Virus record (IMG/VR): IMGVR_UViG_3300037851_001014
Span: 1 to 64,000 of that record
DNA length: 64,000 bases
Strand: one strand, 5' to 3'
From: a virus
Lineage: Duplodnaviria; Caudoviricetes
The notes under the pieces are model-generated. The model did no database searches. It had not been told where the DNA came from and saw nothing but the letters and a program-made list of their open reading frames with translations. Positions 15,724 to 52,926 of this stretch are shown here, piece after piece. Position 1 is the first letter of the stretch. Each line of letters opens with the position of its first letter. The position numbers and the translations under genes are program-made.

Positions 15724-16062
15724 CTACAGAATCTCGACAACATCGAAAGCCCCAACCGGCGAGATGCTATTCCTGCGCATGATGACAATAAATGGTCTGT
15801 ATCCCAGACCCACCCGCATGTGCTCCATCAGGAGCACAGCTACTGTCGACAACCCTGGCAGATGCACCAGGATTGTGGATCTATCGCCGATTAGGTATGG
15901 CAAAGATTGTTCGTAAACTTTGCGCACCTGCGGAGCAAGTGGCTTATCCAAATCCATCTGGCATGGAATATCAACCAACTGGACAGGACCCCTTTTCATC
16001 ATTTCTTCAACCTGACGGATTTGTTCCGCCGTCATGGCATGAGAAAAATTAATTAGAATCAT
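15724..16062 (-). CDS. csx15: Csx15-family (type III CRISPR accessory, ring-nuclease-like) protein, stand-alone
   Basis: MILINFSHAMTAEQIRQVE...IPCQMD...PLAPQV...ILVHLPG...LGYRPFI..MR...FDVVEIL aligns by eye with the Csx15 consensus as I recall it (ILLNFSHPLTxEQxxQIE...IPVQxD...PLxPQ...LVNPP...GxFPxIxRLR...FEVAEI). Confidence 0.8.
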   Translation of the reverse strand: MILINFSHAMTAEQIRQVEEMMKRGPVQLVDIPCQMDLDKPLAPQVRKVYEQSLPYLIGDRSTILVHLPGLSTVAVLLMEHMRVGLGYRPFIVIMRRNSISPVGAFDVVEIL

Positions 16063-16934
16063 TCTTGGTCTCCTCTATACGGAATGCATTCTCCTTCGAT
16101 CCATTCATCTCCATCCCATACTTGCCAGGAATTCCTGGCGTATGACCATATTGTTCCATGGTCCCCAAAGCCCACGGACTCTGGCACTTCTTCTCCCGGC
16201 GGGAGTGCAACCCACAGGAACTGGTCCTCCGGTCCTGTTTCACTCCCAAAGTAGTAAAACAGGAGCTTTGTCAGTACCATTCCCTTTGGAGGAATGGGAA
16301 CAAATTCCTTTACCGGCTCTAGCGAGGAGCCAGCTTTGTCTACCCACTCCGCCCACTCCCAGTCATCCAGACTAGGAACGCCACCTTCTGGAGTCCAATT
16401 CTCTGGGCTCTGAACCCGGAAATTTGTCTTCCCTCCACCACCCCTGGTGGTAGAGAAATTCCAGCCGGTTTCCGTCACGGCCAGAATCACATTCTGCATA
16501 TCCGGGTCCCAGTTCCTTGAACGATATCGTTCTGGTGTTTTTATATCCACCCAGAATACAATACCGCCGCCTTCCTGATATCTAAAGGCAGCCTCTCTCC
16601 GAGAACCTAACCACATACTGTGATCGTCCAAACAAAACCATGCTACACCATTGTAGTCCATGATTTCTTTACAAATAGGACACCTGGGATTGTCCTTCTG
16701 TCGATTGGCAGAGTCAGCCATCGCTAACTCCGCCATGATTGTGCCAAATCCTTTGGTCATTTTTTCTCCTATAAAAGTTACCACACGTGGACGAGGGCTA
16801 TGCGTCCAAACCGCCCATTCTTCTGTGCTGCCGGCACATTCTTTGCCACCAACGACGCTTGCCACCTTCACTGGGGTGGAGATTATCCCCAAGGTCAATA
16901 TACCCCACATAAAGTCCCTCGTGGTATATCTCAA
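16059..16934 (-). CDS. hypothetical protein with CxxC Zn finger, Trp/Pro-rich
   Basis: Long ORF with RCPICKE..WFCLDDH; true start probably internal (MTKG or MAEL). Confidence 0.7.
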   Translation of the reverse strand: MRYTTRDFMWGILTLGIISTPVKVASVVGGKECAGSTEEWAVWTHSPRPRVVTFIGEKMTKGFGTIMAELAMADSANRQKDNPRCPICKEIMDYNGVAWFCLDDHSMWLGSRREAAFRYQEGGGIVFWVDIKTPERYRSRNWDPDMQNVILAVTETGWNFSTTRGGGGKTNFRVQSPENWTPEGGVPSLDDWEWAEWVDKAGSSLEPVKEFVPIPPKGMVLTKLLFYYFGSETGPEDQFLWVALPPGEEVPESVGFGDHGTIWSYARNSWQVWDGDEWIEGECIPYRGDQE

Positions 16935-17013
16935 TCAGGGAGTCAATCGCCGAGGCATAACTGCTCAAGTACTTTATTGATTGCAGTTATGCTCTCATTG
17001 TTCTCCTGCCAGC

Positions 17014-17042
17014 ATGATACCGCACGGTATCTATGCTGTCAA
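17014..17042 (-). promoter_or_regulatory. sigma70-type promoter with a palindromic operator in the spacer
   Basis: - strand TTGACA (17042-17037), 17-nt spacer, TATCAT (17019-17014). Palindrome GATACCG-CA-CGGTATC overlaps the spacer and -10. Confidence 0.8.
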
Positions 17043-17044
17043 GG

Positions 17045-17202
17045 GTTCAGATAACATCTGAACTGTTGCAGCCGGTCGCCACAAACCCCTGGAGGTCTGG
17101 GCGACCGGCAGTTACCCCATGCGCTTCCAGTTAGAGCGAACTGGCACGTAAGCGCAGGTCAGGCGCAAGGGCGGTCGCCACACAAAAAACGGGCGACCGC
17201 CC
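17045..17202. other. cluster of four intergenic hairpins, two of them related
   Basis: GTTCAGAT/ATCTGAAC; GCCGGTCGCC/GGCGACCGGC; GCGCTT-CCAGTT/AACTGG-(bulge)-AAGCGC; GGGCGGTCGCC/GGCGACCGCCC. Confidence 0.8.
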
Positions 17203-17235
17203 ACAGGCTCTGGCTAACGAATCAAAGCTGCTAGA

Positions 17236-18177
17236 TTACAGCAGCTCGATCGTGTAACCGTGTGCAACCCAATCGGCAACCTTTTTGGCAGCAGCACTCA
17301 CTGCCTCTGGGCTGCCGGGCTTGAAGTTCTGGAATAGTACGCCAGACTTCATGCCCGTTGGATAACACACACGGTAGGACTTGCCTTTCGGCAAGCCTGC
17401 CAGATCAACCACAGCACCGGTGCTGGTGGGCATTACGGTACTGGACCCCTTCGGCGGAGGAGGGTTGTCCCCGATGCGCCTGAAGGACTTGGCAATTTCT
17501 TGCCTGTCCTTCAGTTGCCGGACAAGAACCTCCGCGGGGTTCGCCGCGGTGGCTACCTCGATCACATTAGCCGCCATGTTGGCGGACTTTGGACCAAGGC
17601 TTACACCGAGCGCCGCTCCATCTGCCCAGGCGAACAGAGCCCTGCAGAACGCGAACGGGTTCGAGCTGTCCGCGTCTGGGTCTGTCTGATCAGACCCCGC
17701 GAAATCCCATTCTGCGTCGTAGCTCGCTTTCGCGAACTCGCCGTCGAACATGCGCAATTTCTGCACATTGCCCGACGCAGGCAGAACGTGATCCGGGATC
17801 ACGATCGTTTTACCATCAACGACGAGGTCGTTGAGGTAATCGCCACCAACCCATCCGACAAATCCGGTGCCGTGTTTAAACGTCACCTTCTTTGCCGATG
17901 TCAGGAAGATCTGGTTGCCCAGAATCCAGCTTTTAGCAATGATGCGTCGCATCGCGGCCAACGCCGAAAGCGCACCAGGCAACTCTTTGATATAGAGCTC
18001 CTGATCGCCCCAGCGATCATCGCTAATTGTCTGCCCGGGGTGGGCCAGTAGGAGGTTCCCGTAGGTTCCCTCCTCGTTCATCGCGAATGAAAGGACAAAG
18101 TCCTTAGTACCCGCGATGACATTCATGCTGAGACGAGTCCCAGCAGCAGGCGTGGTTTTGGTGGTTGAGATATCCAT
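17236..18177 (-). CDS. hypothetical early protein
   Basis: 313 aa, GC-rich codons, RBS AAGGA; no motif recognised. Confidence 0.85.
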   Translation of the reverse strand: MDISTTKTTPAAGTRLSMNVIAGTKDFVLSFAMNEEGTYGNLLLAHPGQTISDDRWGDQELYIKELPGALSALAAMRRIIAKSWILGNQIFLTSAKKVTFKHGTGFVGWVGGDYLNDLVVDGKTIVIPDHVLPASGNVQKLRMFDGEFAKASYDAEWDFAGSDQTDPDADSSNPFAFCRALFAWADGAALGVSLGPKSANMAANVIEVATAANPAEVLVRQLKDRQEIAKSFRRIGDNPPPPKGSSTVMPTSTGAVVDLAGLPKGKSYRVCYPTGMKSGVLFQNFKPGSPEAVSAAAKKVADWVAHGYTIELL

Positions 18178-18189
18178 ATATTGGTTTCC

Positions 18190-18411
18190 TTACCGACCGG
18201 GCCAGCCGAAGTTCTCCTCAGACAGCAGGAGCTCGGCTTCAAACTTGGAGAGAGCGTCCTCAAGAGACGTCCCTCCGCAGGTACAATCAGGATCGTCTGA
18301 CAGCCAGACGACCCACTCATTCAAGCCAACCTGCTTCACTGAAACAGGCTGATCCTGAATCATCAACTCCTGTACCCCCTTGGAGTTGGCGAGGGCCGGA
18401 ATCCCGGACAT
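18190..18411 (-). CDS. HicB-like antitoxin N-terminal fold protein
   Basis: WVVWLSDDPDCTCGGTSLEDALSKFEAEL resembles HicB (YvaxxPDlPGCxtxGxTxeEAl); no C-terminal DNA-binding domain. Confidence 0.5.
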   Translation of the reverse strand: MSGIPALANSKGVQELMIQDQPVSVKQVGLNEWVVWLSDDPDCTCGGTSLEDALSKFEAELLLSEENFGWPGR

Positions 18412-18413
18412 GG

Positions 18414-19670
18414 CTAGTTGTCCACGTCCGGGATGTCCTTCCCGGCCCGCGGTTGCCCGCGGTCGGTGCTGCGGCCCGCAGCGCGCAGACCCAAGGCGCG
18501 CTGCATAGCTGCGCCCATTGAGTCCGACAGGCCGCCGCGCCCGCGGGTGTGGTAGCGGATTACGGACGTAACTTTCGCGTCCTTCTCCGCCGCCCCCGCG
18601 AGCTTGCGCGCCTTCGCACAGGCTCCCCAGGCGTCGGCCAATTTCGGCCGAGCCTTTTGGCGCTGCGAATAAAATCGCAACGCCGTTACTGCCGCGACCA
18701 GCCTGCGAACAGGCAGGTCGATGCGGACCTTCTGCCCGTCGAGGAGCGTGTACTCCTCTCTCAAACCGGCAGCTCCTAGGAGCTGCCGTATCGCATCCTC
18801 GGTTGCCGAGTCATACAACTCGGCCTTTTCCGGGCCTGTTAGGTCCATCTTTGAAACGATCTTGTACCGCCCGGAGGCGGCCAAGACCGTGAAAGGAACG
18901 AGGTGCATTTCCTCGCCCTCTCTCGTTTCAAAGACAGTCCTTCCATCAAGGATCGCTGCCAGTACGCTAGCGTGGTGGTCGATCTGATCGTCCACCAGCC
19001 GCTTTGCAGCGGCGATCTTATCGGCGGCCTGCTTTTCGAGCAGGCCGGCCTGTTCGGCGACCGCGGTGCGGTCGCGCTTCAGGAGAGCAGCTACGGTCTT
19101 ATCTGACCGTGCTGCCGCGATCCAGGCTTCCCGAGCGGCAATTGCCCGCTCGAGAACCTCTAGCTTAGCCTTGGCGGCATATTTGCTCGCCAAGGCTAGC
19201 TTTTCCTTCAGGAGGGCGATTTCGCCCTCCTTCGCCTGGATCCCGGTCACCACTGCTTTTGCAGCGGCGACCTCCGCATCGCGCTCCGCCCGGCGCTTCT
19301 CCTCAGCGGCTTTCGCCGTCGAGATGAGCGCATTGATACCCTTGAGGGTATCCTCAAAGGCATCCTCGTCCTGGAAGCAGTCTATCAGGGACTGAAGTTC
19401 CGCAGTTCGTACATGGAACTGCAGAGCCTCGGCTCTGATAGTCTTGATTGAGGAGGGTTCAGGCGCAGGCGCAGGCTCGGGCTCGGGCTCGGAGTGGCGA
19501 CTGCCGTCGCCCTCCAGCAGTCCGACAGGCTTTGGGGCAGGTTTCCTGCCCCGGACAGGCTTCTGGGCGGGAGTTGCGGTCCCTTGCCCAGCGGATCTCG
19601 CGGCGTACCGCGAGTTGGCTTTCATCTTAGCCAACTCGGCCGCGATTTCCTTCGCATTTCTTCCGGACAT
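18414..19670 (-). CDS. Ala/Lys-rich coiled-coil hypothetical early protein
   Basis: 418 aa, Pro-rich linker PEPEPAPAPEP, long heptad-like helices; very GC-rich. Confidence 0.8.
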   Translation of the reverse strand: MSGRNAKEIAAELAKMKANSRYAARSAGQGTATPAQKPVRGRKPAPKPVGLLEGDGSRHSEPEPEPAPAPEPSSIKTIRAEALQFHVRTAELQSLIDCFQDEDAFEDTLKGINALISTAKAAEEKRRAERDAEVAAAKAVVTGIQAKEGEIALLKEKLALASKYAAKAKLEVLERAIAAREAWIAAARSDKTVAALLKRDRTAVAEQAGLLEKQAADKIAAAKRLVDDQIDHHASVLAAILDGRTVFETREGEEMHLVPFTVLAASGRYKIVSKMDLTGPEKAELYDSATEDAIRQLLGAAGLREEYTLLDGQKVRIDLPVRRLVAAVTALRFYSQRQKARPKLADAWGACAKARKLAGAAEKDAKVTSVIRYHTRGRGGLSDSMGAAMQRALGLRAAGRSTDRGQPRAGKDIPDVDN

Positions 19671-19679
19671 GTTTGCCTT

Positions 19680-20295
19680 TCTGGGGCCAAAGACCCCATG
19701 AGGTTGGAACTAGCAGGTAACCACCTGCCGGGGTGTATTTCCCTAACCCCCTTTGCCGACCTCGAGCTTGCGGATAACCTGATAGCCGTGCGCGGATTCT
19801 TGGGTACTGCGCCGGTTCGCTCGACCAGGTCTTTCATCCAGCTAGTGCTGGGCAATGTGCAGCATTAGACCATCGCCAGGGATTGTGTGAGCAAGCGCTC
19901 TGGGTTTGTGCGTGTCGTTCTGGTGCGCATGGTCTATGCTGCCTATCCTTCTCTCTCCGAGAGAGAGAACTGCGGCCTTGCACCGCCCTCGGGCTCTCAC
20001 CGAGACACCCCCTTGCGGGGGATGGGGAGTTGTTATTATTGGGTGACTCCTCCCACCCGTGTTGAAGACGATCTGGATCGTGGGCATCCAGGTTCGTCAG
20101 CACCCGTAAGGGTGCAGAAGCCAGCACACTGGCGTTATGTACGCCGCTTAGCGGCGATTGGTTCGCATGAGGCGTGGGAAATGGATATATTTCCCACACA
20201 CCTCACACGTCTCACCGTATATGTGAGCGTGTAAGGTGCGGGGAACACCGCACTTCCCACGCCGCAGGGCAGCCAGGTCCCGATTATGGACCTCG
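19680..20295 (-). ncRNA. candidate large structured RNA / structured leader
   Basis: At least 10 stems, including long-range GCAGCATAGACCAT/ATGGTCTAATGCTGC, CCCCC-GCAA-GGGGG and TTCTCTCTC/GAGAGAGAA. No convincing ORF between 19671 and 20147. Confidence 0.5.
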
Positions 20296-20480
20296 ACCAT
20301 TTCTGGTCGATAGTCCATCTCGGGTAAGGCCAGGACCATGTCTCTTATGGCCCAGACCTTTGTCTCTTCGACCTTGGCAGCCTGCGGCATCGCCACAGGC
20401 TTTGGCTCCTTGCGCCCAAAGCCTGTGGCGTGACGCCTCGGATAACGGTACTTCGGTTTCCCGAAGTTTCGCTTTCCCAT
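20148..20480 (-). CDS. basic hypothetical protein
   Basis: 110 aa, GAGGAG RBS, C-terminal CEVCG; its 3' half overlaps hairpins. Confidence 0.6.
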   Translation of the reverse strand: MGKRNFGKPKYRYPRRHATGFGRKEPKPVAMPQAAKVEETKVWAIRDMVLALPEMDYRPEMVEVHNRDLAALRRGKCGVPRTLHAHIYGETCEVCGKYIHFPRLMRTNRR

Positions 20481-20489
20481 GGCTCTCCT

Positions 20490-20762
20490 CTAGTACATCC
20501 ACTTGCAGAGCCTATTGCTCTGCTTGTGGGCGAGTGCGTTTTGTTGCTGCTTACGCAACGCAACGCATGCTTCGACTAGCGATTTTTCGGCCATCCCCTT
20601 CGAGAAGAGGATTTTAGCCTCTTTCTCCAGGGACAGGGCCTCTTTGTAGGACTTGTACAGTCCCCAGGGGCCCCGGTGCCGTTTTTCGGCACTGGCTGAG
20701 ATTTTGGGATTAGCCATTCGAGCTTTCGCTCTCTTGGCCTTTCCTTTCTTCTCGTTAGCCAT
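20490..20762 (-). CDS. highly basic hypothetical protein, first gene of the leftward arm
   Basis: 90 aa, Lys/Arg-rich; AAGGAG RBS. Confidence 0.7.
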   Translation of the reverse strand: MANEKKGKAKRAKARMANPKISASAEKRHRGPWGLYKSYKEALSLEKEAKILFSKGMAEKSLVEACVALRKQQQNALAHKQSNRLCKWMY

Positions 20763-21302
20763 TTCTATCTCCTTCTTTCTGGGATACCTGCCCGTAGTTG
20801 GTCTACGCCTCTCCTGGTGGTGCGAGGCGCACTGTGGCCAACAGTTGCACTCCTCTACCCAGGCGGGCAGGCTTGCCGTTCATGCAGTCAAAGACTGTGT
20901 GCTGCAGGCTTGCACGCACATGACCAGGGACAATCCACCTACTCCTATTAGTAGATTGCCCCTGGCTTCTGCCTACAAGCGAAACGGAGGCTTACTCCAG
21001 AGAACATCTAGGGGACAGCGCGCATGTTGTCCTCTATGATCTCCTCTGAGACTCGAACTCAAGTGTTCCACTCGGGCATAGCAATAAAGTGTTATGGGGG
21101 GGGAGGGGGTATGTTCACTTCTCCTCTCCACCACCCCCTTATATAGTCGTGCGAAAAATATTATGGCGAAACAGCCTGTTACCATTTGCGTCTATCCCGA
21201 AAACAGTCGTTGGGGGGTGGGTAATAATCTTTGCGGCTTGTTATTATTGAGTGTTTTGCATACTGGCAATTGTGAAAATTACCGATTGTGTCTACGGCAA
21301 TC

Positions 21303-21311
21303 TGATATACT
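21303..21311 (+). promoter_or_regulatory. extended -10 promoter for the rightward arm
   Basis: TGnTATACT about 20 nt upstream of the AGGAG RBS and the 21332 ATG. Confidence 0.5.
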
Positions 21312-21331
21312 GAAGTAGGAGACAATATACA

Positions 21332-21526
21332 ATGGCAAACATACAGAAGGTGAAGGTTCAGGTGAAAGTGGACTATGTGGAGGCCAGGTTGGTGGATGTG
21401 CTGGTCGATGGGAAGTCGATAGAGTTCGAGGGGGCGCAGTTGTACTGGAACACTGATGGGGAAATTGACTGGTTGGCTCTCCAGATACCGCGGCAGTATC
21501 TGGACATACTGGCGAGGGTGGTGTAG
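21332..21526 (+). CDS. small hypothetical beta-rich protein
   Basis: 64 aa, AGGAG RBS; resembles 21765..21968. Confidence 0.7.
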   Translation: MANIQKVKVQVKVDYVEARLVDVLVDGKSIEFEGAQLYWNTDGEIDWLALQIPRQYLDILARVV

Positions 21527-21764
21527 GAGATGGCAAATATACCTGCAAGAGCAGAGATAGCGATCTAGATTGATGAAGATGGCGAATATTGCAATGAGTT
21601 ATCCTCATGTTTCTGCACCTGAAGCAGGCTTAAGGAGCCACAATAAATCGTGTAAGTAAATACATGATATTGATTGATATTCATCGATAATTCACCATAT
21701 TTTTTGTCTAAGTATCACTTAAACAAAGCGGCACGTCTGTGCCATCCTTCCCGCAAATACTGAG

Positions 21765-26885: not shown

Positions 26886-28256
26886 ATGGCTGATCCCATT
26901 ACCGATTACTACGCCGATAATCCTGTCGAGGTCCTCGACAAGAATCAGCGTACCTGGTATGACCCGGACATCCTGAGCCTTTTCCGTCAGCGGAGTTTGT
27001 TTACACCAATTATCCGCTACAAGAAAAATCTGGGCGATGTCCGTGCTACCACGATGGTTGTCTCGCAGTTGCTTGACCCCCATCCTAACTACAATCCGGT
27101 CGCCGCACGCCTGTTGTGGCTGCCTGCCATGCACATCGACTCTCGCAGTGTCGAGATCACCTTCAGCCACTATGCTGGAAAGATTGCTTTGCACGAGTAC
27201 GATGATTTGGTGACCTACTGGCAGCAGAACGGCCAGGCTGGCCTGCGCGGTATCCTGAATGGTGCTCTTGGGCAGCACATCGTGGATGTTCACGACTTCG
27301 TTGCCCGTAATGCCCTGATCGAAGGCGCGCTCGAAACGACCGGCTATGTGTACTATGCCGGAAACGCAACCACCTTTAACGATATGGATGCCTCGGATCT
27401 GTTCGTGCCCGAAATCGCGGCACAGATTCAGCTAGGCATGAAATACCGTGAAGTTGCAAGCGCCATGAACCCCGATGGATCTCCTGGTGCAGTTGTTTGC
27501 TACACCAGTCCTGGCGTCATCTATGACATCCAGAGTGATCCCGATTGGATTGAAGCCAAGAAGTATGCTGACCCCAATAGCCTGTTGCGCTACGAGGTTG
27601 GTACCTACAAGTCGGTGCGGTTTGTGGAATCGCCCCGCTTGACCCTGTGGAATGCCGGCGCACTGACCGCCCAGGCACCCATTTCTGCAGCCGCACACGC
27701 TGGCGATGGAGCACCTGTTCCTGCCAGTGCGAAAGTCGATGGCGTCTATCGCGTTGGTCAGTCCAGCGGTGGTATCGTCAATTTCCTGCAGCTCGGTGCC
27801 TTCGGGACTGGATCGATCAACGATATCGCAGTCAACGATATTGTCACTATCCACACTGCTCGCACCAGCGGGTACGGTGTAACCAATGGCGTCGATCCTT
27901 TTGATGGCAAGTTGCACAACCGCCGTGTCATCAGCAAAGATGTTGGAAATGGTCGCATCACCTTGGACAAGCCGATCATGGAAGACTTCGCCACCGATTT
28001 GGGCGGCGGCGTCTACGGCTATGTCACCAAGGGCTTTAACGTCCACTCAAGCATCTTTGTTGGTGCCCCGAACGCAATTGTCGCCGGTGTTGCACGTCCT
28101 GTACGTCTGCACACTCCTCCCCCGATCGATGACCTGGAAGCGATTTATCGCTACTCCTGGGACTCTCGTGAAGGGATGCAGCCCTATGCGCCCGAGGTCT
28201 TCGAAGTTGTCTTTTCGAGTGGATCGGTCCGCGTCAAGGGCGCAATGACCGTGTAA
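26886..28256 (+). CDS. major capsid protein (HK97 fold, N4-gp56-like) with insertion domain
   Basis: 456 aa; YSGK-like 'YAGKIALHE', YEVGTYKSVRFVESP, terminal YRYSW; strongly biased codons. Confidence 0.88.
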   Translation: MADPITDYYADNPVEVLDKNQRTWYDPDILSLFRQRSLFTPIIRYKKNLGDVRATTMVVSQLLDPHPNYNPVAARLLWLPAMHIDSRSVEITFSHYAGKIALHEYDDLVTYWQQNGQAGLRGILNGALGQHIVDVHDFVARNALIEGALETTGYVYYAGNATTFNDMDASDLFVPEIAAQIQLGMKYREVASAMNPDGSPGAVVCYTSPGVIYDIQSDPDWIEAKKYADPNSLLRYEVGTYKSVRFVESPRLTLWNAGALTAQAPISAAAHAGDGAPVPASAKVDGVYRVGQSSGGIVNFLQLGAFGTGSINDIAVNDIVTIHTARTSGYGVTNGVDPFDGKLHNRRVISKDVGNGRITLDKPIMEDFATDLGGGVYGYVTKGFNVHSSIFVGAPNAIVAGVARPVRLHTPPPIDDLEAIYRYSWDSREGMQPYAPEVFEVVFSSGSVRVKGAMTV

Positions 28257-35700: not shown

Positions 35701-38700
35701 CAGCAAGGCAGTCTGGCTGCAACAGATCAGGGCAGAGATAGCTGAACAGGTTGGCGTTGATACAGAGAACAATCCGCTCACAGATGCCGAGATCGAGGAA
35801 ATATATGGCAGTGTTGCAAATGTCTCTGCGTTTTCAGAGGGTGTTCCTGGCCTAGCAATGCGCTATCCAATCGTTGGCGGTTCCAAAGAATCTGCCCTGG
35901 GCGTTCGTTTTCTAACCCCCGAACAAGCGCAAAAGCAAGGTGTCGCTACTGTGGATACCCCCTTTGGGGATTACTGGAACATATCTACCGGGTTGTCTTC
36001 TATTTTCCAGGGCGACTTCGACTTAGATCAAATGGCGACGCTTATGGGTATAAAAGCGTATCGAGACAAAGGGGGCAAGCTACGCCATTCCTGGACGCAA
36101 CTGGACGAGAAAGGCAATATCGATCCAAAGTTAATGGCCTCTATCAACAGAAGCGCAACCATGAACTACCAGGACCTGCAGCGGAAAATGTTCCCATCGT
36201 CCGCTATGCAGAACAGGTTCAACCCGCTTCTTGGAGCGTTCTCTGATCGGTTCGCCGGTCAGAATGTTGGAGATCTCGGTTTTTCGTACAGGTTGATGCG
36301 TAAGCAAATGGCCGCATCCAGATTTTACAATATAGGCGAGCTGCTCACCGGAACGCATATTGTCCAGAAGGCAGCTGGCGAGGAAATGGGTGCGTCATAC
36401 AACCTGACGCGTGCTCTTGAATCGGCATCTATCATGTCTCGTTGGTCGACGGCAAGTATTCAAAAATCACGCGTCTCGCGTGCGCCAGTCTATCAGCCGT
36501 ACCTTGACAAAAGCACGTCTATTCCGGTATCGATGACTGAGATGTTTAGAACGGCGTATCTCAGCACTCCAGAAGGAGCAATGGCTCCTGAGCTTGGCTG
36601 GGCAACCCCAGAGGCTAAAGAGTTGTCTACCGAGCCTCAGTGGACAAAGAGAAAGATAGCACTGACTCCCGAGAATGCCATGCCGTTTCTGCGAGCTTTA
36701 ACCGAATCTGCCGCGCGTCCTCATGTTGTGCCTGGAAAGTTCGCTGATCTTCCATCGCCCAACCTGCTTGCCCGTGCCCTTGCGCCATACCCAGGGATGG
36801 CTTTTGGAACAATCAAGCCTAGGTACCTGAAAGCCTACAACAGCCAATTCAAGACATGGGAAGATCTTGTCGTAGGTGGTGGTACAGACGAGCAAATAGC
36901 ACAGGCGGGAAAATTCTTCAAGGGCGTGCCACTGGAGGCAGCTATTAAATCTGCCCAGGAGGCTACCTGGGGACTTGGAGAGAGCGATCAAGACTTGCTG
37001 CTCGGCAGACGCACAAAAGGCACTGCGGATGTAGTTGAGGCATGGTACAAACAGAACATTCCAGAAGATTTGCAACAGGTCTATGCCAGTACTCTTGCGC
37101 AGTCCATGATCGGAAAGGCCTACTTCTCGGCGCAGGCTGATGCAACCAAGACGATACCATCCTCATGGGAAAAGTCTGATTTTGGGGCAGAGACTGTTCA
37201 ACGGGCGCGCCGGTGGCGGGTTGGATACGACATGGCGCGTGGCATTGTCCCCGAAATGGGTGCGTTCAAGGAGACCTACGATTGGCTAAGTGGCATCGAT
37301 AGAAGTGTGCGATCCCAGGGAGCGGAGCTTATCTTGCGCATGGGCAAGCTCTTTGGCGCAGCCGAGGCTGTACCTTTGTCAATGGCCGGCTCTCAGATGC
37401 TCTATGAGAAAGCAATGGCAGCTCCAATATCCTTGCGCTCAAGTACCTATGGCGATATCGGGAATCCTGTTTATACGAACAAGCTCGTCGGAGGGAACAA
37501 AAGAGTCGACTCGGGATTATACTCGTCTGTTTTGAGCACGGTGGCGAGCACGCTCAATCTTGGCGGTATGGATGTTAATGCGCTGCAGGCTGCTTTCCTT
37601 CCAAGTGACGAACAAGGGCTTGCGCACATGAGACGCGGGAACAGGTTCGAAGACCGTCTCGCTAAAGTTGCTGGCGAAGCCATGTATCACAGCGGACTGT
37701 CTGGATACGCAAATCTTGGCTCGGGCGATCCAACGAAAGCGGTTTCGTCGGCTTTCTCTCTTGTTGAGGACATAGAGCTTGGGGACGGCCAAAGAACGAC
37801 AGTCGTAATGCACGGAACGCCAGACTTTCTTCTCCCAATTGGCGGCAAACTGTACGAAGTTGAGACCAAGAATCCCCAAAAGCAGGCCGGTACGAAAGCT
37901 GCGCAGATGGAGAAGTACAAGGCGCAGACTGATATGGTTCGCTATATCATAGAGAAAAAGGTTGGTCGCATACTTAATCCAAATTTAGCGCAAGGCTTTA
38001 GGGACAAAGAGGCTGCCGAGCTTAGATCATCTTTGCGTTGGTATATGCCAGAAGAGCAGATTGATGAGGCATACGAAATGCTCCTCGCCCAGGGTGGCGC
38101 TGGCTCGATCTTGTTCAATGTTGGCGCTGACACAGATCTGTACAAAAGCATAATGCACGGGAAAATCGACAAAGCGCATGCTCAAGTCATGAAAGAAGTG
38201 GCGTCTGAAGATAGCCCGTATGTGGTCGAGAGGGTAGAACCTCTTGCGGGCGGACAATACGCAGAGCGTTTTGAGAAAAACAAAATGCGTGCTATCCGGG
38301 AAGTTTACAGCAAGCGCGGCGGTGTCCTCGAAGAGCTTGTTGGACTGTTGTCGCCTGCACAAAAGTTTCACAGAATGCGCCTTGGGCAAAACCCAGACCT
38401 GGCGACCACGTGGCAATCGAGACGAGCAATGGATGTTCTTCAGCGCGCTCGGCATGGACTTCTGTCTCTTGGAAAATACTTCTACGATCTAAGGGAGGCG
38501 GCTCATGCCGCCAGCCCTGGAGCAACGAGAGCGGCAACTCCCGAGGAACAAGCCGCAGCTGCATCTACTCCTCCCCAGCCACCTCCAGTGGCACAAAACG
38601 CATCATCGCCGCGGGCACAAACAGCAACCCCAGGAACAGCACCCGCAAGTCAGACACCAATTACCAACGCCGCAGATATGCCTATTGAGGAACTACGTGC

Positions 38701-41700
38701 ACGGGCTAGCATGCTTGGATTATCCAGGACAGCTGCTGCGAAGAAAACAAAAGAGCAATTGGTTGAGTTTCTCGATCCAGCAAATAAGGACAGGACACCA
38801 GTAGGCCAGAGGCTGAGCAAGTCAAGCATAAGCGATCTTCAGAGAGGTCTACTGGAGGCAGATTCAGCAATGGCTTATGCACCTTACGTGCCTCCTCCTG
38901 CCACGCCTGTTCAGGCAAATCCTGGACCGACTGCAGGAGCCGCGCCCCCTCCTTCAGTCCCGCCAACGCCTGGTGTCAACGCTGCTGCTGCAGCCGCAGC
39001 AACGGCCGGGCTTGCGGCGATGGCTGGTGGTGGTCAACCTGGTAGCCCTGGTGATACAAGTGGTTCCCCGGGACAGCCACCCGAGGGAGGCGGGTTTATC
39101 AAGCCGACCTCAGTGGCGCAGCAGATCGTCGGACTTTACCGCACGCGGGGACAGGCAATCCAGGAGGCAGCAATTGCCCTGCGAACTCAGTTTGGCGTTA
39201 CAGAACGTGGAACTTTGAGGAGAGGTATTACGGGACGCGAGGAAGAATTTGCCCAGGCAGCCCTAAAGCATCAAGAGGCGATTATGGACGCCCAGGCTCT
39301 GGTGGCTATGGGAGTGGCTTTCCAGAAAGGGCCGCGTGGCGTCGATATGGGCTTTCTTGACAAAGATGCTGCTGATATCATAGACAAGGTAACGACAACT
39401 GGCACACCTATGGGGAAAGATCTGTTAGATCTGGAGGGCGCCGGGCAGGAGATGACCAGATATAGCAAAGCGGCGATCAAGAGAGCCAGGCTTGCAAACC
39501 TCGAAAGAAGGCTTGCCACAGGTGGTGTCGGCGACCAGATATCTAGTTGGTTTGGGGATGGTGTTACTCCCATGGATCCTGACGACCTGGCTGCCCAGAT
39601 AGAGAAAAACCCAGCAGCCGCCGAGGCTTTCAGAATTGCTAGGAACTTTTCCAAAAAAGATGCTACCCGTATGGCGAGCGAGTTCCCAAGATCCGCAGCA
39701 CTCATACAGTACACAGAGGGCATGAAGGGCCATCCTGGGTTTGATGCCGCTATCAAAGAAAAGCCCGCTGCGACCAAGTCTCTCATTGCTGATGACGTAA
39801 AGGCGACGTGGGCGGAGAAGTTTACCAGGGCCGCTGACGAAGCCACTGCAGCGCTCAAGAAGTTTAGTGGAGCCGCCCAAAAAACAAGTGATCTCCACGA
39901 GAAAACAGCCCAGGCGTTGAAGGCTCTGAGCATAGAGGAAGCCTACGGCAAGCTCATTACAGCTGCCGCCAAGGTTGGCAAGGAGCCAGAGAAGGACAAC
40001 CTTGGCAGACTCAAGCTATCGCCTACGGGAAGAGCACAGTACGAGAGTCTGACAGCACAGGAGGCCGCCGCGGCTGAGATTGGCGATGTCGAATCGTACC
40101 AAAGCGCCCTGACTGGATTCCAGCAGGCTACTACAGCCCCCACTACCAAGAAAGGGGCTATTGGGAGGCTTGTTGACAGACTTGCTGGGCCTCCTGAACC
40201 AGACGATCCGGCGATCAACATGCGCCGATTCCTGGGTGGCTTTGGCCTGATGTACCTTCGCAGTCTGTGGGGCATTGCGACTGGCGGTCTTGGATACGGT
40301 ATGCAGGAGCGCGCTGAGACAATGCAGCAGCTTGGCGGTCCCTCGGCGCAGATGTTTGGGGCGATATACAGACCGAATGTCCCTGGTGTTGCTTTGAGAA
40401 ACATTATGGGTGCTACTGGCGTAGGCGGAAACCCGCTGCTGCAGTTCCAGGAGATGTATGCACGCACCCCCTTGCTGCAGGACGCAGGTACCGCACTTGG
40501 CGCAGGGCTAGGAACCTATGCTCTTGCCCAGCAGGTCGGAATGTGGAGCGGCAGCAATACCCTAAAGAGCATCCTTGGTAAATGGGCTGTTCCAATCGCA
40601 GCTGGGGTTAGCGCAGCAACGTTGCTGTCTTCCGCTGCCGGAAAGCTGTCAGACACAGAGAGCGTTGGCTACCGTCTTGCTACGGCGCCTGTGCTCGGAA
40701 AATCATTCACCGACGAGTGGGCATACTTGATGGGCAGTCAGCAGCAAAAGGAGCAGATTGGCATCGCAATAGGACAATATGAAAGAATAACAAAGGGTGG
40801 ATTTTCTCAAGGTAGCACCAGGAACATTCGGTCTGTGTCGCAGATGATTCCCGTCGATACTCCAGTAGGAGAGTATTTTGGAACAGTTGAGGAGAAGATC
40901 AGCCTGGCTGCGACCGGACGACCGGACTTGTACAATACTCTTACCGAGGGCCAAAGAGCTAGCACCTATCAGCGTCTGACGCAAGCCCAGATATCGCATT
41001 TTGCCCCACAGTTTTCGGCAGAGGCGAGTCAGGCTGCTATGGATTTTGCCTTTAGAACAAGAGCCGTTATGGGGCAGACAGGAATGCAGACGCTCACGGC
41101 ACGCATCCAGCAGGGTTACTCTCCGCAGATTGCCCAGGCATACATGGCAGCAAGTGGTTATTCTGTAGCCGGAATGTATGCTGGTGCTGCTGGCCCTGGG
41201 ACGCAAGCCAACCTGATGAACTATTACAATACGCTTGCTCCAATGGCCACAACGCAGAACTTGCCGTATCTCGAAGCGGCCATTGGCGTCATGGGAGCGA
41301 CAATTCCCATGAATACCTATATAACCCAGATGGGCATGCGTGGTGCGATCGGCATGGACACCGAGGCATATCAAAAGGCATTGGCTGCCCTGGTACCAGG
41401 AAGCTCGCAATACAACCAATACACTGCCGCAGGTGCTCAATGGGCGCGGCTGCAGGAATTTGGACGTGCAGCATCACCGCCGAATCCTGTAGACTTCACA
41501 ACTATGAATGCTCAGGAAACGCGCCTTGAGGAGCTAAGGCAGGCTGAAATGCAAGAAAGCCTGAACACAGAGGATGCTCTGCAAAGAGCATTGGTTCTCA
41601 GGGGCTTCTCCGCCCAAGACGCCTACGCCTTCACCAGGGGGATTTATACAACAGCGAGGGGCGGCCAGCTGAGCGAGTATGAAACCACCACCGAGCTTGG

Positions 41701-51339: not shown

Positions 51340-51858
51340 ATGGCAGATGTCAAGGTAGAAGATCTAGCGGCAATCGCAAGTCCGGCATTAACAGACTTGC
51401 TCTACGTCGTGGCCGATCCGGGGGGTACGCCGGCAAGCAAGAAGGCAACCCTGGCGAATATTGCCCTGGCGCTTGGCTTTGGGGCGTTGACAGACTGGAC
51501 ACCCACCATTACACAGAGCAGTACGATAACTAAGACAATAGTGGGTGCTAAATATTGCAGGATCGGGCAACTGGTGTTTTTGGATGCTGCTATGAACATT
51601 ACAGGTGCGGGGTCAACTGGCAATGCGATAATAATATCAAATCTGCCAGTTGCGGCTGCCGCGAATGGTGTTTGTGGTACAGCAAGGATAGATAATACTG
51701 GAACACTACTTTATGAAGGTGCAGCGTACATGAATGCAGGTGCAGGGCAGATAACATTTAGGGCACACCTGGAAACAAATGATATCGGGGCAGATCCCAG
51801 CTTTGCACTAGCGAACGGGGACGTCATTAAGTTTCACGCAATGTATGTGGCAGCTTGA
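51340..51858 (+). CDS. tail fibre tip/adhesin paralogue 1
   Basis: MADVKVEDL...DPGGTPASKKATLAN...DWTP followed by a variable beta domain. Confidence 0.7.
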   Translation: MADVKVEDLAAIASPALTDLLYVVADPGGTPASKKATLANIALALGFGALTDWTPTITQSSTITKTIVGAKYCRIGQLVFLDAAMNITGAGSTGNAIIISNLPVAAAANGVCGTARIDNTGTLLYEGAAYMNAGAGQITFRAHLETNDIGADPSFALANGDVIKFHAMYVAA

Positions 51859-52523
51859 CAAAGGGAGCATAAATGGCAGATACTAAGGTAACTGGACTCA
51901 CGGAAATAACCAACCCTGCACTAACAGACTTGGTGTATGTGGCTGCCGATCCGGGGGGTACGCCGGCAAGCAAGAAGGCAACCCTGGCGAATATTGCCCT
52001 GGCGCTTGGCTTTGGGGCGTTGACAGACTGGACACCGGTCATTATGCAGGGTGTAACAGTGGCTAGCACGACAATATATGCCAAATACTGCAGGATTGGG
52101 CCATTGATGTATATATGTGCCAGTGTAGCTATCGTGGGTGCGGGAACATCTGGCGCCGCTGTCTTTGTAACAGGTATGCCAGATAATCCTGCCTATATAG
52201 GCGGCTTTGGTATAGGGCTTGTGGAAAATGCTGGAACAGCGTTCTACGCGGGCGAAGCAGAATGCAACACAAATGGCACCATCGGATTTATTTGTCACCT
52301 AGAGATATCTGCTATAGGCATAGACCCAAACTTCGCATTGGCGAGCGGGGACGGCCTTTATTTTTTCGCGGTTTACCCAGTCTAGGCAAAAGGAGATAAC
52401 CGATATGGCAGACACTAAAGTATCGGAACTTGCGGAAATAACTAACCCGGCATTAACAGACTTGCTCTACGTCGTGGCCGATCCGGGGGGTACGCCGGCA
52501 AGCAAGAAGGCAACCCTGGCGAA
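51382..52523 (+). repeat. identical direct repeats in the 5' parts of the three paralogues
   Basis: 92 bp identical at 51412-51503 and 51945-52036; 77 bp identical at 51382-51458 and 52447-52523. Confidence 0.9.
51873..52385 (+). CDS. tail fibre tip/adhesin paralogue 2
   Basis: Same N-terminus and the same DPxFALAxGD C-terminus as paralogue 1. Confidence 0.7.
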   Translation: MADTKVTGLTEITNPALTDLVYVAADPGGTPASKKATLANIALALGFGALTDWTPVIMQGVTVASTTIYAKYCRIGPLMYICASVAIVGAGTSGAAVFVTGMPDNPAYIGGFGIGLVENAGTAFYAGEAECNTNGTIGFICHLEISAIGIDPNFALASGDGLYFFAVYPV

Positions 52524-52926
52524 CTTCAAGCTGGCGATCGGCTTCGGAGCATTGACGGACTGGACACCGTCTATTACCCAGAGCGTATCTGTTAGTAAAA
52601 CAGTCACATACGCCAAATATTATACTATTGGGCCATTGATGTATATATGTGCACTTATGTCGATCACAGGCGCGGGAACCGGGAACAACAATATTTTTAT
52701 TGGGAACTTACCTGCTCAGCCCGCCAGCAATGGGGTTTATGGTACGGCATGGATACTAAACAATGGAACAGCCTATTATCACGGACCGGCTTATTACACA
52801 ACCGGGGCAGGAGGCGCGTTCTATTTCATTTGCCATCTAGAAGTGGCTGGGTGTGGAATAGACCCAAACTTTGCACTAGCGTCTAGTGACATGATCGCAT
52901 TTTGTGCGCTATACCCCACAGCGTGA
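52405..52926 (+). CDS. tail fibre tip/adhesin paralogue 3
   Basis: Same architecture as paralogues 1 and 2. Confidence 0.7.
   Translation: MADTKVSELAEITNPALTDLLYVVADPGGTPASKKATLANFKLAIGFGALTDWTPSITQSVSVSKTVTYAKYYTIGPLMYICALMSITGAGTGNNNIFIGNLPAQPASNGVYGTAWILNNGTAYYHGPAYYTTGAGGAFYFICHLEVAGCGIDPNFALASSDMIAFCALYPTA

Follow-up and report, generated by a model that had tools for sequence, protein, structure and literature searches.

Katz and Burge reportedly found in 2003 that local mRNA secondary structure is under selection in the coding regions of bacteria, and some RNA viruses are said, following Simmonds and colleagues, to possess genome-scale ordered RNA structure (GORS); in these cases, the excess of folding reportedly ranges from a few per cent to about 15%. 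Hairpins of another kind serve as promoters for the virion RNA polymerase (vRNAP) of phage N4, which are few in number and have a conserved stem and loop sequence. In Thermus phage P23-45, the vRNAP forms a fusion with the tape-measure protein and uses a linear AT-rich promoter (PMC10770324). Here we analyzed a hairpin-rich, untranslated gap of 477 nucleotides (nt) at positions 19671..20147 on the minus strand of a phage genome from a freshwater metagenome. The window consists of the first 64 kb of the 82.8-kb linear IMG/VR virus record IMGVR_UViG_3300037851_001014. An original prediction had presented the gap, together with part of the adjoining gene, as a candidate novel structured RNA of about 600 nt.

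The unit of interest is instead a block of about 5 kb (15724..20762, minus strand), which comprises seven consecutive genes and two spacers, and of which the gap is the least folded stretch. The existence of this hyper-folded block is well supported, on a single sequence, and the specific claim of a new structured RNA of about 600 nt is not supported. We lean, a little beyond an even chance, towards the view that the gap is an untranslated linker within a set of hyper-folded phage mRNAs rather than a stand-alone ribozyme, riboswitch or GOLLD-type RNA.

Results

Seven consecutive genes fold better than their shuffled versions

The folding of equal 477-nt segments across 16–22 kb was compared with that of their dinucleotide shuffles. 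The gap had a native minimum free energy (MFE) of -192.5 kcal/mol and a shuffle mean of -168.0 kcal/mol (z about -3; -3.2), whereas the coding segments on both sides of it displayed z-scores of -7 to -15, with native and shuffled values of -279.9 and -183.8 kcal/mol at 18804-19280 (z -13) and of -253.7 and -160.7 kcal/mol at 20148-20624 (z -15). When 100 dinucleotide shuffles of the gap were used, the mean was -167.5 ± 6.0 kcal/mol (z -4.19). The gap thus folds better than shuffled sequence, as had been expected of it, and it does not stand out from its surroundings (z -3 to -4 and 16% excess energy, compared with 19–55% in the adjacent open reading frames (ORFs)).

Folding across the genome was assessed by regression and targeted shuffles, and coding regions were further compared with synonymous-codon shuffles that preserve each protein and its codon usage. 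Pieces of the genes for the 418-, 110- and 313-amino-acid (aa) proteins gave z-scores of -7.5 to -14.5 in this comparison, the capsid gene giving -2.8, and synonymous and codon-permutation shuffles together yielded z-scores of -7.5 to -16 in the ORFs of the block. Gene by gene, the folding energy of all seven consecutive genes of the block exceeded that of their synonymous shuffles by 19–55% (z -4 to -15), while the excess in 19 other genes was -1 to 21%. These seven genes are therefore folded beyond what their proteins and codon usage entail, as is expected of hyper-folded coding mRNA. Since synonymous shuffling abolished the excess, the folding depends on silent codon choice and not on the amino-acid sequence. 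Outside the block, only the capsid gene (26886-28256, plus strand) reached a z-score of -6 when taken as a whole, with 12% excess.

The folds of the block ORFs were chains of perfect stems of 6–15 bp with loops of 3–12 nt, one per 30–40 nt. Perfect hairpins with a stem of at least 7 bp occurred at 5–12 per kb at 17–21 kb versus about 1 per kb elsewhere in the genome, and the whole block contained 31 of them compared with 2.7 in its dinucleotide shuffles. As the P23-45 genome, at 57% GC, has only about 1.3 perfect hairpins per kb, high GC alone is insufficient to produce the hairpins of the block.

The block overlaps a GC island (approximately 17000-21000) with a local GC content of 58–61%. The GC content was 0.64 at paired and 0.40 at unpaired positions of the block, the latter value being near the phage background, and GC at third codon positions (GC3) was 0.64 in the block versus 0.41 in the rest of the arm. 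The GC island is largely a footprint of the stems. Single-stranded runs of at least 10 nt were found at 2.7 per kb in the block versus 5.1 per kb in a control stretch. A pair of inverted repeats flanking the island (16670-16695 and 20928-20953, 73% complementary) was considered and set aside as being at chance level by our estimate (a 9-nt seed in 6 kb).

The gap holds real hairpins and an ill-defined global fold

Every stem listed in the original prediction was found in the minus-strand sequence, and most of them had pair probabilities of 0.66–1.0 in the partition function. From the upstream end, these are CGCCGC/GCGGCG (20156-20142), GCACCC/GGGTGC (20115-20100), GACGA-CTGGAT/ATCCAG-TCGTC (20098-20067), the hairpin CCCCC-gcaa-GGGGG with a GNRA loop just downstream of an AT-rich 16-mer (20021-20008), TTCTCTCTC/GAGAGAGAA (19969-19949), an interrupted stem of 13–14 bp, GCAGCA-AGACCAT / ATGGTCT-TGCTGC, that encloses a C/A-rich, G-poor loop of about 55 nt (19942-19859; pair probability 0.99–1.0), GGCAGGT/ACCTGCT (19729-19712) and TGGGGTC/GGCCCCA (19698-19682). 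The outer stem GACC-TCGAGC/GCTCGA-GGTC (19831-19758) was seen in the centroid fold, with only its inner GCGC/GCGC pair exceeding a probability of 0.6. The first hairpin of the gap spans the stop codon of the 110-aa gene upstream, and between the end of the last hairpin and the ribosome site of the downstream 418-aa gene there are 8 nt. A 21-codon ORF at 19867-19929 (minus strand) lies inside the interrupted stem, with its ATG in the 5′ arm, its TAA in the 3′ arm and no good ribosome site; it probably arises by coincidence from the CAT/ATG palindrome.

The spacer carries about 13 short hairpins. Perfect hairpins in the gap, counted with a stem of at least 5 bp and a loop of 3–12 nt, numbered 17, compared with 3.9 ± 1.9 in shuffles, of which none had more than 9. 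The global fold is ill-defined, as the MFE structure had a frequency of 0 and the centroid retained only local hairpins. The excess of folding energy was 16% on the minus strand and 21% on the plus strand.

No credible ORF was found in 19671-20147, in agreement with the original prediction: the open frames present there lack both a Shine–Dalgarno site and the pattern of high GC1, low GC2 and high GC3 (GC at the three codon positions) displayed by the neighboring genes. The gap showed no coding periodicity, apart from a faint coding-like GC periodicity at 19940-19701, in the frame common to both neighboring ORFs. An intron of group I or II splitting a single gene was rejected, since no intron model matched and five stops separate the two ORFs, which share a frame. 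Nor was any riboswitch, ribozyme or intron recognized, as had been stated: no Rfam 15 family matched at its gathering threshold in the whole window, and covariance-model searches of 19300-20800 at permissive E-values returned best E-values of 0.5–6, which are far sub-threshold and represent short microRNA or small-RNA noise. ARAGORN detected no tRNA or tmRNA. A search of the gap found no sigma70-type promoter; a single terminator-like site, a weak one (19986-19972, minus strand), was present.

These results bear on the possibility that the gap encodes a discrete, novel structured noncoding RNA (ncRNA), processed from the surrounding mRNA or transcribed apart from it. The lack of a credible ORF over 477 nt of a tightly packed phage arm, the excess of hairpins (with z -4.2) and a possibly promoter-like AT-rich motif at 20045-20030 speak for such an RNA. 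However, its robust parts are simple local hairpins with no defined multi-helix junctions, no Rfam family matched beyond noise even at E ≤ 10, and neither a terminator nor a sigma70-type promoter bounds it. Moreover, it has less structure than the surrounding coding sequence, shows no strand preference and has no homologues in which covariation could be counted. We therefore consider a discrete ncRNA rather unlikely. From the claim of a novel structured RNA there remain hairpins that are real, non-random and of no known family, together with RNA features of the minus strand at the level of the block (sense-biased tetraloops; see below), whereas a discrete RNA of about 600 nt is not supported, given the ill-defined fold, the equality of the strands, the lack of a flanking promoter and terminator pair and the position of the gap as the least structured segment of the 5-kb block. 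The stems do run on into the 110-aa ORF (20148..20480), as had been predicted, and they extend, with stronger folding, through all the neighboring genes as well.

AT-rich sequence occurs at a single place in the gap, the 16-mer CACCCAATAATAACAA (20045-20030, minus strand), which precedes a C-tract and is a candidate internal promoter or protein site. A second copy (15/16 identical) is located at 21253-21238 on the same strand, in the intergenic, divergent control region, and is again followed by a C-tract. These are the only two copies in the 82.8-kb genome; both are intergenic and lie 360–475 nt upstream of a gene. By our estimate, two such copies are not statistically compelling genome-wide. 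A genome-wide search for a phage promoter as a repeated motif gave nothing convincing and no repeated motif besides this two-copy 16-mer.

Tetraloops favor RNA hairpins at the level of the block

Thirty hairpins of the block have a perfect stem of at least 5 bp and a four-base loop. GNRA or UNCG loops were present in 11 of the 30 when read on the minus (sense) strand and in 1 of the 30 on the plus strand, about 1.4 being expected, and the same sense-strand trend was repeated in the MFE folds. At the level of the block, this sense bias suggests RNA hairpins rather than DNA hairpins. In the first half of the 291-aa gene (16059-16535), the z-score was -8.8 in the sense and -2.9 in the antisense direction, while the gap and the second spacer (16935-17235) each gave similar z-scores on the two strands. 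The asymmetry of G-U pairs was discarded as a strand test because the rest of the arm shows an equal asymmetry arising from base composition. For five of the seven genes, the start region was more open (probability of being unpaired, 0.42–0.61) than the block as a whole, which averaged 0.32; values of 0.29 and 0.39 were obtained for the remaining two. We favor the interpretation that the hairpins function within sense transcripts, those of translated genes; for the gap alone, the strand evidence is neutral.

The strand symmetry of the two spacers, along with the proximity of the gap to the divergent control region, is what might be expected if the stems acted as DNA, either as hairpins or cruciforms serving as N4-style vRNAP promoters (the original prediction had named DNA hairpin signals for the virion RNA polymerase) or as a replication origin or an injection or packaging signal. 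Against this stand the strand-specific tetraloop bias, the location of most hairpins inside ORFs and the absence of iterons and of any stem or loop sequence common to the hairpins; no copies of one conserved hairpin of the N4 type were found upstream of early genes. In addition, the characterized homologous vRNAP, that of P23-45, recognizes a linear AT-rich motif (PMC10770324), and a far better origin- or operator-like array is present at genome positions 82539-82640. A DNA-level role thus appears highly improbable. The latter array, at the right contig end beyond the window, consists of seven overlapping perfect hairpins with alternating GGTGAAC and GTTCACC units about 10–12 bp apart, and gives the strongest local folding signal on the plus strand of the genome.

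The likeness of the z-scores on the two strands would also be compatible with hairpins that arose as a by-product of a local mutational process (template switching or quasi-palindrome correction) in weakly constrained ORFan DNA that evolves fast, the gap being a decayed gene of a like kind. The stems are mostly perfect Watson–Crick helices of unique sequence, the large genes are ORFans of low predicted foldability, and the faint periodicity at 19940-19701 could be a remnant of coding sequence, all of which agree with such an origin. Conversely, it does not explain the excess of GNRA and UNCG loops on the sense strand (11 versus 1), and five of the seven ribosome sites are more open than the block average. 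Furthermore, hyper-folding extends to the recognizable Csx15-family gene and to the 291-aa gene, which lies outside the GC peak and is folded mainly in the sense direction, and the other 78 kb or so of the genome shows no such process. We regard a by-product origin as unlikely.

P23-45-type signals are not found around the block

The tape-measure ORF of the phage encodes 3,717 aa and contains a putative fused vRNAP, by analogy with P23-45. Nascent-RNA hairpins may accordingly be considered as serving a clamp-less, tape-measure-fused vRNAP, with the block as its pre-early unit; they would pull the transcript away from its template and guard against backtracking and R-loops during the first DNA entry, when ribosomes are not yet coupled. 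The block starts at the first gene of the leftward arm, by the divergent control region, as the pre-early genes of P23-45 start by a strand switch (PMC10770324), and the pre-early region of P23-45 is mildly enriched in hairpins (3–5 per kb versus about 1.3) and likewise includes a noncoding spacer, of 847 nt. However, the pre-early genes of P23-45 have only 4–25% excess folding energy, like its other genes, and its hairpins form one conserved, intergenic terminator family. In the present phage, a near-consensus sigma70-type promoter precedes the second half of the block, and the genome yielded no repeated promoter motif; in the relatives nearest by terminase, the 10 kb examined upstream of the terminase gene lack a block of this kind. 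Neither a repeated AT-rich promoter motif nor a conserved 26-nt terminator motif of the P23-45 type was detected. A service of the hairpins to the vRNAP is therefore quite improbable.

Components of the block and its genomic setting

The phage is a tailed phage with an SPP1-type portal and a capsid gene. Genes left of about 20.8 kb are on the minus strand, and the packaging and structural genes are on the plus strand. The leftward arm effectively starts with the gene of the 90-aa ORF (20490..20762), which has a strong AAGGAG ribosome site and 47% excess folding energy (z -9.7). This is the first gene in the arm whose ribosome site is good, and the gap does not lie at the start of the leftward arm, although it had been placed at the head of the early transcript. 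Further right, a 109-aa ORF on the minus strand (21279-21608) looks spurious, with a Pro/Ser-rich translation, an odd GC pattern and a GC3 of 0.31, and opposite it lies a 64-aa ORF on the plus strand (21332-21526) with a TAGGAG ribosome site; these two ORFs suggest that the strand switch is nearer 20.8–21.3 kb than 21.7–22.2 kb.

The second gene, the 110-aa ORF, is the most hyper-folded one (55% excess, z -11); it has a GAGGAG ribosome site and a weak, sub-threshold match to the DksA/TraR zinc finger. The longest perfect stem of the block, a 15-bp hairpin with a 10-nt loop (20391-20430, minus strand), is found inside this ORF, and an imperfect helix of about 35 bp (20260-20174) covers its putative zinc-finger codons. 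Directly downstream of the gap is the 418-aa ORFan (18414..19670; 36% excess, z -15), which contains 13 perfect hairpins with a stem of at least 7 bp in 1.26 kb. It is followed by the 73-aa ORF (18190..18411; 19% excess, z -4.0) and the 313-aa ORFan (17236..18177; 28% excess, z -12). The second spacer (16935..17235) has 49–55% excess and z-scores of -8 to -9 on both strands, and carries a terminator-like stem of 11 bp (17169-17202) and then a near-consensus sigma70-type promoter (17042-17014). Beyond it are the 291-aa ORF (16059..16934), outside the GC peak and with mainly sense-strand folding (24% excess, z -9.5), and the last hyper-folded gene, which encodes 112 aa (15724..16062; 25% excess, z -6.6). 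The latter matched the Csx15 models of PADLOC (E 2.3e-7), a family associated with type III CRISPR. All of these genes are on the minus strand.

The genes of the block abut, and several have strong Shine–Dalgarno sites. Two of the open frames, of 431 and 317 codons, were longer than any in 200 shuffles of the island, in which the maximum was 302. Given the long open frames, the Shine–Dalgarno sites and the Csx15 family match, the block genes look real, and we take the large ORFans as real but fast-evolving proteins. An assembly artefact is excluded, since the stretch is identical in contigs of two freshwater DNA runs that belong to separate studies, an identity that also leaves no population variation for counting pairs; the sequencing runs listed as carrying it are DNA runs, with no RNA run among them. 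Elsewhere in the window, three tandem paralogous genes for proteins of about 170 aa (51340-52926, plus strand) have repeated 11-mers in common, at a spacing of about 533 nt.

Search for relatives of the gap and the block

The gap DNA had no match among 50,697 phage records, and its sole copy in the genome is the gap itself. No related loci were found in IMG/VR via the flanking proteins. The 418-, 313- and 112-aa proteins had no homologues in a library of 5.8 billion sequences, and the 418-aa protein had none in a representative library of 1.8 billion. The ESM Atlas offered no usable neighbors for the two large ORFans, and searches of PHROGs and Pfam with the block proteins gave no matches or sub-threshold ones. 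The nearest relatives, identified via the terminase (L002 and L003), have terminases that are 63–65% identical, and the early arm is not conserved in them. A literature search found no report of hyper-folded phage mRNA blocks.

Discussion

Our analysis places the gap within a run of hyper-folded genes. As an untranslated linker, it would belong to the transcripts of the block, which may form at least two transcription units and carry a chain of short GC-rich hairpins along nearly their whole length. The first 100 nt or so of the gap would then be the 3′ tail of the 110-aa gene, and the last 360 nt or so a hairpin-rich leader of the 418-aa gene, with the 16-mer and C-tract at 20045-20030 between them as a possible internal promoter or protein-binding site. 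Through selection, long single-stranded stretches may have become almost absent from these transcripts, which would then be longer-lived or less accessible to enzymes and guides that require single-stranded RNA. In particular, they could be poor substrates for RNase E-type decay, for Rho loading on untranslated RNA, for HEPN RNases and for pairing with the CRISPR RNA (crRNA) of type III systems.

The presence in the block of a Csx15-like gene, whose family is associated with type III CRISPR signaling, suggests an anti-defense cassette. One could then speculate that a double-stranded DNA (dsDNA) phage "armors" the mRNAs of an early or anti-defense cassette, including that of the Csx15-like protein, with about two-thirds of the 5 kb paired and the host weapons that are specific for single-stranded RNA thereby blunted. 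The weapons in question would be type III crRNA pairing, HEPN RNases activated by cyclic oligoadenylate, RNase E and Rho, and both codons and spacers would have been chosen for pairing; the GC island would be the footprint left by such a strategy. We put this proposal forward tentatively and consider it doubtful.

Several observations weigh against the linker interpretation. The gap alone folds on the plus strand at least as well as on the minus strand, and a GNRA loop is present in only one of its six tetraloops, so that the RNA-level argument rests on the block and not on the gap. The block is known from one genome, and L002 and L003 have no hairpin-dense block in the 10 kb examined upstream of their terminase genes; neither the gap nor the 418-, 313- and 112-aa proteins have a homologue, so that there is no covariation and no proof of selection. 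The language-model folds of the two big ORFans were poor (predicted local distance difference test scores of 0.49 and 0.38), and neutral accumulation of hairpins is therefore possible through weak protein constraint. Finally, we infer the protective function, the role of the 16-mer as a promoter and the timing as "early".

If the folding is adaptive, it would represent a counter-defense or expression strategy written in silent sites rather than in a protein. If this is true, some GC islands of ORFans that look foreign would owe their GC content to stems and not to a donor genome. Hairpin-dense, gene-free gaps in such islands should accordingly be called ncRNA genes with caution, and only after the neighboring ORFs have been tested in the same way.

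Compared with known systems, the gap resembles the large RNAs GOLLD (RF01998), ROOL, OLE and HEARO in being hundreds of nucleotides long, GC-enriched, hairpin-rich and carried by a phage. Unlike these RNAs, it has no Rfam match and no demonstrable multi-stem junctions, and its structure crosses ORFs and is weaker in the gene-free part. As in N4, short hairpins are located near the start of the early region in a phage with a putative vRNAP, but the stems here are all different and mostly intragenic and have sense-strand RNA tetraloops. The likeness to P23-45 includes a leftward arm that begins at a strand switch next to the terminase module, the presence of small unknown genes, a noncoding spacer of considerable length (847 nt versus 477 nt here) and hairpin enrichment. 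The spacer of P23-45 (38117-38963), which belongs to its pre-early region, has long polypyrimidine tracts and two sigma70-like TTGACA promoters. In contrast to the present block, P23-45 has hairpins that are a repeated intergenic terminator motif (of the GAGAGGGC-gcta-GCCCTCTC type) and genes that lack hyper-folding; the P23-45 promoter motif, of the TTTATTCCTTT type and positioned directly before pre-early start codons, is absent here. With the cases of Katz and Burge and of GORS, the block has in common that coding RNA folds better than its synonymous or dinucleotide shuffles and that the structure consists of successive local stems lacking a common sequence motif. It differs from these cases, as they are reported, in that the effect is restricted to 5 kb of a dsDNA phage genome and in the very large extent of its folding, with an excess of 19–55% and z-scores down to -15.

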